Part shown: positions 28,807 to 30,823 of the stretch, one piece after another
Numbering within the stretch: the first letter of the stretch is position 1
Layout: each line of letters opens with the position of its first letter
Source of the DNA: a virus
Lineage: Duplodnaviria > Caudoviricetes
Strand: one strand, 5' to 3'
Length of the DNA stretch: 64,000 bases
IMG/VR virus record: IMGVR_UViG_3300028048_000089
Coordinates: 1-64,000 of that record
Notes under the pieces: generated by a model
Told to the model about the DNA's origin: nothing
Seen by the model: only the letters and a program-made list of their open reading frames with translations
The model's database searches: none
Translations under genes and position numbers: made by a program

Positions 28807-29691
28807 TTACCTCAAAATAGTTGGATATTCTTTAGATGTAACATAATAAACTTTACAACTATTGCCGATATATTGCTTAAAGTCTTCTTTTGACATTTCA
28901 ATTCTATTGCTATCTAGAATCTTTGGGGATGTCCAATGGTCATGTGTTAAACCATCATCCCATCTCCACTCAGCGTCAAAATTATCATCAATTGGATATA
29001 GAGTTCTACCAATATATTTCTCAGTTCCGTCTTCAACTGTTTCTTTCATAAATGTAATTTTTTCTACATTTTCACGCCCTGTTGGATTATAATACTCTAA
29101 AACTACTTCTCTATAGTGGTCTTGTAAGTCTTTCTTATAATGTTGCCAATAATCTGAATACCAACCATGTTCTAAATGGTCATCTAACTCTTCATCAACA
29201 AAACTTTGACTAGAAATATAAACAATTTCTTTTCCGTCACTGTGATAACACATACTAACAAGATAAGGATAATATGGAAGTAAGTCTAATAAAGTATCAA
29301 AATGAATATCAATAGTTATCCAAATACCTTTTTTATTTAATTCTTTTAAAGTATATTCTTTACCCCAATAAGTATAAGTTAAATAAGTTTCTTCTCTTTG
29401 ACCATTTTTTAATCTTTTATCTGGAACAATTCTAGTATGTTCTTGATAATCAAAATCTTTACAAAGTTTTTTAACTTCTTCATGATTCCAGAGTGTTAAG
29501 GTAATCTTTTTATGTTGATGCATAACACCACCAGTTGCTTTCTTAAATGCTAAGAAATCTAACCATTCATCAGAATATAAGACATGAACATTTTCATCTC
29601 CAAAGTTAACTGGATTACCATCTTTATCAAACCAGCCACCCATACCACCAATGTGGTCGCACAAATCGCATTTGCCACTGAAAACAGACAT
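28807..29691 (-). CDS. Hypothetical protein with N-terminal CxxCxH
   Basis: 294 aa; MSVFSGKCDLCDH. Confidence 0.65.
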   Translation of the reverse strand: MSVFSGKCDLCDHIGGMGGWFDKDGNPVNFGDENVHVLYSDEWLDFLAFKKATGGVMHQHKKITLTLWNHEEVKKLCKDFDYQEHTRIVPDKRLKNGQREETYLTYTYWGKEYTLKELNKKGIWITIDIHFDTLLDLLPYYPYLVSMCYHSDGKEIVYISSQSFVDEELDDHLEHGWYSDYWQHYKKDLQDHYREVVLEYYNPTGRENVEKITFMKETVEDGTEKYIGRTLYPIDDNFDAEWRWDDGLTHDHWTSPKILDSNRIEMSKEDFKQYIGNSCKVYYVTSKEYPTILR

Positions 29692-29692
29692 A

Positions 29693-29782
29693 CTATCTAA
29701 CCACCTCTCTTAATAAATATAAAGAAAGAATGAGATTAGTTAAACCTAAAATCATTCCTAAACATGCAATAAAATCAATCAT
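29693..29782 (-). CDS. 29-aa hydrophobic peptide (MIDFIACLGMILGLTNLILSLYLLREVVR)
   Basis: AAGGAG RBS, single TM. Confidence 0.5.
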   Translation of the reverse strand: MIDFIACLGMILGLTNLILSLYLLREVVR

Positions 29783-29865
29783 TTATTAATTCTCCTTTAA
29801 GCTTTTGGCTTCTAAAATGTTCTTTTGGAACTACTGAGAAATATTTTCTCTATTATATTATACAA

Positions 29866-29907
29866 TAAAAAAAATAAAAAGACCACCAAATTCTTTTTGG
29901 GGCCTTT
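29866..29907 (-). terminator. Intrinsic terminator ending the ncRNA
   Basis: AGGCCCCAAA-AAGAA-UUUGGUGGUCU followed by a U tract. Confidence 0.7.
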
Positions 29908-30610
29908 AAGAACTCACGTTGTCTCTACGCCTATTACTAGGAACCGCATTCCAGATTCTTTCTGGCTTTGGTATTATAATGGTCTTCTACATTATTTCTA
30001 ATGCTCCTGAATGCGGTAATTACCATTAAGCCCGGCTGGGAACTCCACTATTACAAGTCAGGCCCAATAATAGTTTCATCGTTCTTTAAATTTTGAGGGC
30101 TTTCTCATTCCCTCTTGCCCGAATGTCATTCATTTCCCTGGCAATTAACAACAGCGGTCTTGAATCATTGTCGTGCATAGCGGCTTAGTTCTCCTGGAGT
30201 TTGAAGAGTTTGCTTTCTCTTTATTTTTTAGTTTAGCGTATGAATTTTCACATTTTTGGTTAAATTCATATGCTATTCTGGGATACCGTACCGAAGTACG
30301 GGCATGCGGCTCTTCGCCTTTAGTAACTTTATTTAAGGTTTGCTACCTTAGTAGCATTTCCAAGAAACATCATTCCCTACCCTTAGATAGAGCGACAAAC
30401 TTTCTTGTACCTAACTAACTTTTTAAGACTAAGAGCCCTTTAAGAAGAGACCTATTGCTAGGCTGCTATATCTTACTTGTAAAAGATAGTGAGCATTTAA
30501 CCTTAGATTCGCATCTAGTTTTTCTACCCTTAAAAGGTTCTTAGTCATATGACTGACCCATATATCAAAGTCCATTTGGGCCTATATTAGATATATGCTT
30601 AACAGCCTGT
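29870..30610 (-). ncRNA. Large structured ncRNA of ~740 nt (GOLLD/ROOL-like size; family unassigned)
   Basis: No credible ORF; GC above the flanks; many stems with GNRA and UUCG loops; promoter motif upstream and terminator downstream. Confidence 0.75.
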
Positions 30611-30823
30611 CTAATCATTTAATTTAGCATATTTCTTTGATAAATGTTTTGCAAATAAATCATAAAAATACCATTTATTCTGATTTACAAAATCATAACA
30701 CTCATTAAAGTCTGCTTCTTCCATATTGTCTGGGCTTACATATTTATCTCTGCACTTGTTCTTTTCAGTAGATAAGCAATCAAATGTAAGTTTAATATAA
30801 TCATCTAAAGTCCACTTTTTCAT
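30611..30823 (-). CDS. Hypothetical protein
   Basis: 70 aa ORF. Confidence 0.55.
   Translation of the reverse strand: MKKWTLDDYIKLTFDCLSTEKNKCRDKYVSPDNMEEADFNECYDFVNQNKWYFYDLFAKHLSKKYAKLND

Follow-up and report, generated by a model that had tools for sequence, protein, structure and literature searches.

A promoter-to-terminator RNA locus of a rumen phage with exchangeable modules and a putative drum-class 3' domain

This report concerns a non-coding RNA locus on the minus strand of a 64,000-nucleotide (nt) stretch of viral DNA (the window), which comprises the first 64 kb of the linear, 115,328-bp IMG/VR virus record IMGVR_UViG_3300028048_000089. The locus lies near positions 29,870-30,629 of the window. 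It runs from a phage promoter motif to a terminator and is a minus-strand, structured non-coding RNA locus of a rumen phage that falls mostly outside the described families. It is best described as a divergent drum RNA (Rfam family RF02958) that lacks its partner gene and is joined, in a phage transcript, to further structured modules that are exchangeable. As a description, a real and modular non-coding RNA locus whose 3' module is of the drum class is probable. The explanation that we favor overall adds to this description a proposed role as a decoy that acts in trans, and it is given a probability of roughly 0.45.

Drum is a widespread bacterial RNA whose function has been unexplained since 2017. 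Its description reports a terminator at the 3' end and a compelling association of the RNA with a protein nearby (Weinberg et al. 2017, PMC5737381), and no later paper that assigns a function to it was found in the literature. A phage-borne drum that has no nuclease gene, is placed behind a phage promoter and occurs in rumen RNA libraries argues for drum acting in trans on a protein.

The non-coding locus and its drum-like domain

The original prediction had singled out the locus as the longest non-coding stretch of a gene-dense window, bounded by a promoter motif and a terminator, and a scan for open reading frames (ORFs) bears this out. On the gene strand, the interval 29692-30610 has no ORF of at least 60 amino acids (aa). 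No gap of this kind in the window is longer, and in the 115-kb record only 74623-76991 exceeds it. The GC content is raised in both gaps (0.355 for 29692-30610 and 0.351 for 74623-76991 vs 0.292 overall), and reassignment of the stop codons (TGA=W, TAG=Q or TAA=Q) opened no long frame in the 760 nt of the locus. The promoter motif and the terminator are both present on the minus strand (Table 1).

Every stem listed in that prediction exists on the minus strand when pairs are counted by position. The segments 30546-30529 and 30444-30427 form 17/18 pairs, 30275-30262 and 30247-30234 form 13/14, and 30017-30009 and 29951-29943 form 9/9. Five GNRA/UNCG tetraloop hairpins with stems of at least 4 bp are found in the minus sense and none in the plus sense, and the locus is the top 750-nt window genome-wide for such hairpins (5 vs a mean of 0.46 with a standard deviation of 0.72). 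This strand bias supports the structure and fixes its strand as minus. The folding z-scores of the sub-domains (-5.1 for the 120-nt domain, -4.1 for the insert, and -3.2 for 30327-30418) are better than that of the whole region, which fits real modules, and 0 of 200 shuffles of the 120-nt domain fold as well. No internal promoter or terminator of any quality was found inside the RNA, and no tandem repeats, which the toxin processes in type III antitoxin RNAs, were found in 29700-30700.

The RNA was compared with known families by a permissive cmscan of 29700-30800 against the 4227 families of Rfam 15, with all matches to E=10 listed. This check had been proposed in the original prediction, and no Rfam family reaches its threshold at the locus; at gathering thresholds the window contains one tRNA and the rest of the genome one more. 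The suggestion that the family could not be assigned and may be new holds for most of the RNA but not for its 3' 115 nt, where the match points to a divergent drum. Drum is matched at 29974-30084 on the minus strand with 35.9 bits (E 7.8e-5) over model positions 1-112. A second covariance model was built from an alignment of 15 genuine drums that had been taken from bacterial genomes (57-91 bits); it included neither the phage sequence nor the pseudoknot. It matches 29972-30086 on the minus strand at full length with 28.3 bits (E 0.0013), and the phage domain is its only match outside the training set in 239 kb of sequence. The best score of this model in a further 482 kb of phage and other loci was 15.3 bits.

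In real drums the six bases directly after the ACCNCA segment pair with the 3' half of the P2 loop to form a pseudoknot. This pseudoknot covaries, with 6/6 pairs changing on both sides and 97% of cells paired among 12 distinct sequences. The corresponding strands of the phage domain, CCUGA (30062-30058) and UCAGG (30010-30006), form 5/6 pairs in the exact register of the family. Altogether 17 of the 21 model pairs form in the phage domain. P1 (30084-30081/30043-30040) has 4/4 pairs with a compensatory change from G-C to A-U, P2 (30074-30067/30054-30047) has 9/10 model pairs, and P4 (30004-29999/29994-29989) has 4/4. The likeness to drum covers the full model length, P1, P2 and P4, the GAUGAA, GGA, GGG and ACCNCA elements, the pseudoknot and a downstream terminator, which is rho-independent and lies at 29906-29863, 66 nt after the domain. 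The phage copy differs from known drums in that it ends an RNA of at least 500 nt rather than standing free, and in that 66 nt of extra hairpins come before the terminator and no PBECR4 gene comes after it. The folding z-score of the domain is unremarkable (-0.5), as would be expected of a pseudoknotted fold, which is invisible to nearest-neighbor models. The 3' module appears to be a divergent drum-class domain and not a certified family member, since two models match the same spot and the helices and pseudoknot are in register, yet P3 is shifted and the GAAAGAAAAC tract is partial.

Modules in other strains and related phages

The original prediction treated the RNA as a single ornate unit of about 740 nt. 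Its nature as a structured non-coding RNA stands, but its unity does not, since modules occur independently in other strains and phages, namely the 5' 200 nt, the 108-nt insert and a block of ~105 nt. Parts of the stretch are present in public sequencing runs of gut metagenomes and metatranscriptomes from cattle and goats, with runs of small share left out of the habitat assignment. Of the 24 runs listed, 14 are rumen metatranscriptomes that come from several studies, and samples from both animals in several studies have near-identical sequence. All three metatranscriptomes that were examined at contig level have contigs over the core. A 506-nt contig in metatranscriptome X2 is identical to 29899-30404, while a 390-nt contig in X4, an RNA run of a second study, spans 29907-30404 and skips 30219-30326. 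The identical 108-nt skip is found in X5, a goat-gut DNA run, with a junction that is ambiguous by 8 nt. The RNA-library contigs end at 29899 and 29907, within or next to the terminator. RNA libraries may contain DNA, and the contigs give no ends, strand or level; the RNA runs have no cover over 30405-30622 and an uneven depth, and are not evidence for a 5' end or an expression level.

The 5' part of the RNA behaves differently from the core. Variant contigs of three runs match as far as 30404-30418, and those of X5 and X7 reach 30417-30418 and then diverge. The 5' leader (30548-30614) is absent from the variant contigs. The 120-nt piece (30425-30547) is found in a different context in a goat-gut DNA contig of X5, and in this copy two nucleotides are inserted at 30528, which would disrupt the 48-aa ORF 30429-30575. 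The strain variants differ at too few positions for pair tests, and the changes are neutral (G-C or A-U to wobble, with some terminal pairs lost). Upstream, homology with relatives that share the 70-aa gene (82-88% DNA identity) ends at 30631, at the promoter motif. Homologues of this 70-aa ORF were found on five contigs, and in 5/5 other, ordinary genes follow and no RNA.

Islands of RNA are also found in the closest relatives by the downstream 294-aa gene, on L005, L012, L013/L014, L073, L076/L077 and L007. These islands are ORF-free, GC-raised and promoter-driven, are 1.6-4 kb long with tRNAs, and lie close upstream of the homologue of the 294-aa gene, with one called gene in between in L005 and L073. 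They are homologous mainly to the other RNA locus of this genome at 74.6-77.0 kb. The present RNA has short blocks of 35-105 nt in common with the related islands and with its own 74623-76991 locus, but neither the related islands nor the 74623-76991 locus have the drum-like domain, and the present locus is shorter and has no tRNA. A search of the related islands with Rfam returned tRNAs only and no drum, GOLLD or ROOL. The 16-nt motif AAGGCGAAGAGCCGCA and the UUCG hairpin (30323-30286) are common to the islands of L005, L012, L013 and L014, and two stem pairs of this hairpin change on both sides (UA and GC in the phage RNA vs CG and AU). L076 (2616-2718) shares a block at 83% over 105 nt (~30222-30121) with different flanks. 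On L077, at about 2833-2920, a run of N starts where the shared block (window ~30180-30120) would continue, and no comparison is available there.

A single conserved full-length architecture of 500-800 nt, as in GOLLD and ROOL, was not found among the variants and relatives, which share modules only. Taken from the run contigs, the upstream boundary, the shared motif and the shared block, the conserved unit is ~30418-29899, with or without the 108-nt module, and the 5' 200 nt are a separate acquisition. The locus is a patchwork of separately mobile structured modules and not one conserved 740-nt unit. The modules other than the drum-like domain match no described family, and their homologues here are too few for covariation tests.

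Table 1. Features of the RNA locus and its surroundings, in 5' to 3' order of the minus strand (window coordinates)
Feature	Position	Strand	Basis or remark
Phage promoter-type motif TGCTAAATTAAATGA	30615-30629	minus	overlaps last codons of 70-aa ORF (stop 30611-30613)
5' leader with alternative hairpins, contains AGGCCCAA (30583-30576)	30548-30614	minus	z-score -1.05, not distinctive
120-nt domain, 17/18-bp closing stem around three hairpins (GCGA, 8-nt and GCAA loops)	30427-30546	minus	z-score -5.09
Start of core, CUCUAUC-UAAG-GGUAGGG nested in CAAGAAA/UUUCUUG, then UGCUAC-UAAG-GUAGCA	30327-30418	minus	z-score -3.23
Optional 108-nt module, AAGGCGAAGAGCCGCA, cUUCGg hairpin (30301-30286) and 13/14-bp hairpin (30275-30234)	30219-30326	minus	z-score -4.11
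Block with hairpin AAGAG-AAAGCAAA-CUCUU and GCCAGGGAAAUGAAUGACAUUC segment	30087-30218	minus	z-score +0.37
Putative divergent drum-like domain	29972-30086	minus	Rfam and own covariance model
3' tail, CCAGA-AAGAA-UCUGG, AUGCGGUUC (29949-29941) and CCUA-GUAA-UAGG	29911-29971	minus	z-score -2.07 together with terminator
Intrinsic terminator, stem AAGGCCCCAAA/UUUGGUGGUCUU followed by U-run	~29906-29863	minus	hairpin and fold
Promoter-like TTGTATAAT, recurring element	29865-29857	minus	after terminator
Uncalled hydrophobic ORF, 29 codons	29693-29782	minus	after terminator and TTGTATAAT; good ribosome-binding site AAAGGAGA
294-aa protein gene	28807-29691	minus	238 metagenomic homologues, no Pfam or PHROG family

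A proposed decoy role and competing explanations

In bacteria drum is found next to genes for PBECR4 (PF18813). In 6 of the 9 drum-bearing genomes sampled, a drum and a PBECR4 gene share a strand, with the drum 56-80 nt upstream, and 6/9 PBECR4 genes in those genomes are preceded by drum. The other drum copies are orphans. PBECR domains are predicted RNases of the BECR fold that belong to phage/host conflict systems and are typical of polyvalent proteins (PMC5512222). The order of the bacterial drum cassette (RNA, terminator, nuclease) resembles that of type III toxin-antitoxin loci. Phage PhiTE reportedly escapes the ToxIN type III system with a pseudo-ToxI RNA, and a phage copy of drum without the nuclease parallels this antitoxin mimicry. 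The phage RNA differs from type III antitoxins in that it has no tandem repeats, drum being a single pseudoknotted fold, and in that the roles of drum and PBECR4 as antitoxin and toxin are predicted only.

Based on the pairing of drum with PBECR4 in bacteria and the absence of a nuclease gene from the phage record, a decoy or mimic acting in trans would be the most economical mechanism. The transcript would be made from the TGCTAAATTAAATGA promoter during infection, and its drum-like domain would bind and neutralize a drum-partnered PBECR4-type nuclease of the host or of a prophage. This nuclease would otherwise abort the infection. The other modules may be further decoys, or they may serve as scaffolds or stabilizers. 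This specific mechanism, a trans-acting decoy or antitoxin mimic proposed by analogy, is tentative and well short of an even bet. If true, phage escape by RNA antitoxin mimicry would have a second case, one that is structurally unrelated to the first, and the large ORF-free islands of rumen phages would be modular counter-defence arsenals and not single giant RNAs. An extended version, which we regard as unlikely, would make the locus a multi-decoy counter-defence RNA, in which a chain of modules mimics regulatory RNAs of hosts or prophages. The drum-like module would disarm drum-controlled PBECR4 nucleases, while the 108-nt UUCG module, the 120-nt domain and the L076 block would each target a different RNA-dependent defence. 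If true, this would explain the cassette-like exchange of modules between rumen phages.

Several observations weigh against the favored explanation of a modular RNA with a drum-class decoy end. The first group concerns the drum assignment. The Rfam match is below the gathering score of the family (35.9 vs 43 bits). P3 has 0/3 pairs in the model columns, and a 6-bp helix AAUGGU/ACCAUU (30027-30022/29983-29978) forms one or two columns away. Among the 30 columns that are at least 90% conserved, 21 agree in the phage domain and nine differ, and the near-invariant A-rich GAAAGAAAAC tract is only partly kept and reads GUAGAAGACC in the phage. The second group concerns the RNA as a whole. For the whole region the minus strand has a folding z-score of -2.6 and the plus strand one of -4.6, and since the latter is stronger, folding z-scores cannot fix the strand. 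The non-drum modules show no covariation apart from the two pairs of the UUCG hairpin, and the RNA-library contigs are supportive of transcription but not proof of it, since the libraries may hold DNA. The third group concerns the mechanism. The antitoxin function of drum is a prediction in every system, and the record is 70% complete, so that a partner nuclease could lie in the missing part. Orphan drums are also found in bacteria (e.g., 5/6 copies in G188), and therefore a missing partner gene is not special to phages.

A side observation on orphan drums comes from a bacterial genome with six drums (L096:43-903, 1501-1608), in which an orphan drum lies ~600 nt downstream of a Phage_Mu_F gene in a prophage-like region. 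Genes for a ParE toxin and a MazE antitoxin are found alongside. MuF is a domain that is often fused to PBECR RNases.

The drum-like module might instead control a nuclease of the phage itself, either a divergent BECR domain that was missed by Pfam or one whose gene lies in the 30% of the genome that the record lacks. In that case the RNA would serve the phage as an antidote or regulator of its own and not as a counter-defence decoy. The 70% completeness of the record is in keeping with this, as is a ~25-kb block of polyvalent-type proteins in the phage, including ART-PolyVal and a weak LPD5 match, because PBECR domains are typical of such proteins (PMC5512222). The bacterial orphan drum ~600 nt downstream of a MuF gene points in the same direction. 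However, PF18813 (PBECR4), DUF3800 and MuF were all absent from the 115-kb phage record, with PBECR4 and MuF searched in six frames, and a Pfam search of eight large phage ORFs returned ART-PolyVal but no BECR family. In the bacterial cassette the nuclease is directly downstream of drum, whereas the genes downstream of the phage RNA encode a 29-aa peptide and a 294-aa protein without a fold match, neither has a family match, and no PBECR4 gene lies 56-80 nt downstream. A nuclease of the phage's own is thus judged to be improbable.

The original prediction had likened the RNA, in size and phage context, to GOLLD and ROOL. GOLLD/ROOL-like large RNAs are reported to form homo-oligomeric assemblies that are seen as cages by cryo-electron microscopy (10.1101/2024.12.08.627333). 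One large ornate RNA of a new class of this kind, for example a self-assembling scaffold or cage with the drum-like part as a sub-domain, would account for the size, the phage context and the density of tetraloops. The locus is like GOLLD and ROOL in being several hundred nt long, phage-borne and hairpin-rich, in its rumen origin (as for ROOL), and in that related phages have tRNAs in the equivalent islands. Membership of this class is not supported, as neither the GOLLD (RF01998) nor the ROOL (RF03087) covariance model matched 29700-30800 to E=10; the same was true of group I/II introns, RNase P and transfer-messenger RNA (tmRNA). The locus also differs from these RNAs in that its modules are gained and lost between strains, and its 5' 200 nt are not conserved with the core.

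The long-range pairings also bear on whether this is one large RNA. A kissing loop between 30583-30576 and 30067-30060 had been proposed, and the two segments are true complements (8/8). It is not borne out, because the count of perfect long-range 8-mer complements in the RNA is at chance level (8 vs 6.6 +/- 3.7 simulated) and the pairing clashes with the covariation-supported pseudoknot. The kissing-loop partner UUGGGCCU overlaps both the drum-type pseudoknot strand CCUGA (30062-30058) and the P2 stem, and AGGCCCAA is not in a loop in the minimum-free-energy fold, in which GGCCCA pairs locally with UGGGUC. The segment ACCGCAUUC consists of the conserved ACCNCA segment and the start of the pseudoknot strand. 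Since the same strands are used, the kissing loop and the 9-bp helix ACCGCAUUC/29951-29943 both compete with the drum fold.

A different long-range pairing joins GAGCCGCAU (30312-30304, in the optional module) to AUGCGGUUC (29949-29941) with 9/9 pairs. It is compatible with the drum fold and is used by the minimum-free-energy structure. In a single large RNA this clamp would close a domain of ~370 nt with variable cargo. RNAs of the L005, L012 and L013 types, which cannot otherwise be aligned, have the same two strands at a distance of ~350 nt, and the RNA-library contig that is continuous over 506 nt also speaks for one large RNA. On the other side, neither this clamp nor any other long-range pair shows covariation, and the clamp cannot form in strains without the 108-nt insert, which lose one of its strands and keep the rest. 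We therefore consider that a single large RNA of a new class is a rather unlikely explanation of the locus.

It is also doubtful, to a similar degree, that the transcript is a polycistronic precursor whose cleavage yields independent small RNAs with unrelated roles (the 120-nt domain, the UUCG module and the drum-like RNA), the 740-nt form being functionless. Each module is found alone in other contexts, and the equivalent islands of related phages contain tRNAs. In two studies the RNA-library contigs reach no further than 30404 though the strain DNA must continue, which is a weak hint of processing, as contigs cannot show RNA ends. The absence of an internal promoter or terminator of any quality goes against separate small RNAs, and a precursor of this type would be compatible with the decoy explanation and not opposed to it. 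Finally, it is very improbable that the locus is debris left by recombination, or a long leader or trailer that is not translated, in which the hairpins are incidental and the likeness to drum is due to chance. In favor of this are a modest whole-region z-score that is exceeded on the opposite strand, a drum score short of the cut-off and a highly variable synteny. Against it, two independent models match the same 115 nt at full length with the unmodelled pseudoknot in register, the tetraloop hairpins are strand-specific and the densest in the genome, the GC content is raised, and RNA libraries as well as samples from cattle and goats in several studies contain near-identical sequence.

Flanking genes, genome setting and other RNA loci

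The GC content of the phage record, which is ~70% complete, is 29%, and all of its genes are on the minus strand. Annotated functions include DNA polymerase, a DnaB-type helicase, NrdD and dUTPase, and the nearest relatives of the genes that neighbor the RNA come from rumen assemblies. The promoter motif TGCTAAATTAAATGA is found ahead of most phage genes, structural ones included. When up to two mismatches are allowed, the window has 7 copies (1.2 would be expected by chance) and the genome ~20, every one of them on the minus strand. Nearly every copy is followed, after 14-54 nt, by a start codon that has a ribosome-binding site. Only the two copies in front of the ORF-free RNA loci clearly depart from this.

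Downstream of the terminator, the stop codon of the 29-aa ORF is 1 nt before the start codon of the 294-aa gene. The AlphaFold2 model of the 294-aa protein is confident (pLDDT, the predicted local distance difference test score, of 91.9), and no sequence match in the PDB and no Foldseek match was found for it. The 294-aa gene is downstream of RNA islands in the closest relatives only.

Other searches for relatives returned little. A BLAST search of the RNA in distant mode against 50,697 GenBank phage records gave no match, single-protein look-ups of the 294-aa neighbor and the DNA polymerase in IMG/VR gave no relatives, and a scan of genome contigs with the protein alignment gave only two distant relatives. 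A pattern scan of IMG/VR for GGCGAAGAGCCGCA...TTCGG gave 5 matches, all in GC-rich coding DNA, and a scan of the same database for GTTGTTAATTGCCAGGGAAAT gave none. The 16-nt form gave 12 matches in JGI metagenomes, all by chance. The most AT-rich of these, L027, was rejected, as it looks like animal DNA with repeats of the low-density lipoprotein (LDL) receptor type and has no Rfam match. No copy of the 16-nt motif with at most two mismatches was found in 17 related viral records (7 complete). Two other readings of short segments were ruled out. A group II domain V-like reading of GAGCCGCAU has no local 3' strand and no intron model match, and in L005-type RNAs the stem that a T-arm/tmRNA-like reading of GCGGUUCUACUCC requires is not formed.

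At ~93,200-93,950 of the genome, within the 524-aa ORF 93101-94675, GNRA/UNCG hairpins in the minus sense form their second-densest cluster (4 in 750 nt). The second RNA locus of the genome, 74623-76991 (L002:10623-12991), is outside the window. It is 2.37 kb long and ORF-free, has a GC content of 0.351, and carries the same promoter motif at its start (76930-76916) and a tRNA-Met at its end. The RNA islands of L005 and L007 match blocks of this locus at 84-100% identity, and a tRNA is its only Rfam match. In the related rumen phage contig L012, a near-threshold match to the c-di-GMP-I-GGC riboswitch aptamer is found at 553-628 (54.4 bits vs a cut-off of 59, E 4e-10). It adjoins a tRNA and is ~2.3 kb upstream of the large ORF-free RNA island of the contig. 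On L010, another relative, the region 880-2650 upstream of the same 290-aa gene contains an array of at least 11 tRNAs, together with sub-threshold tmRNA-like (886-963) and YrlA-like (2580-2645) matches.

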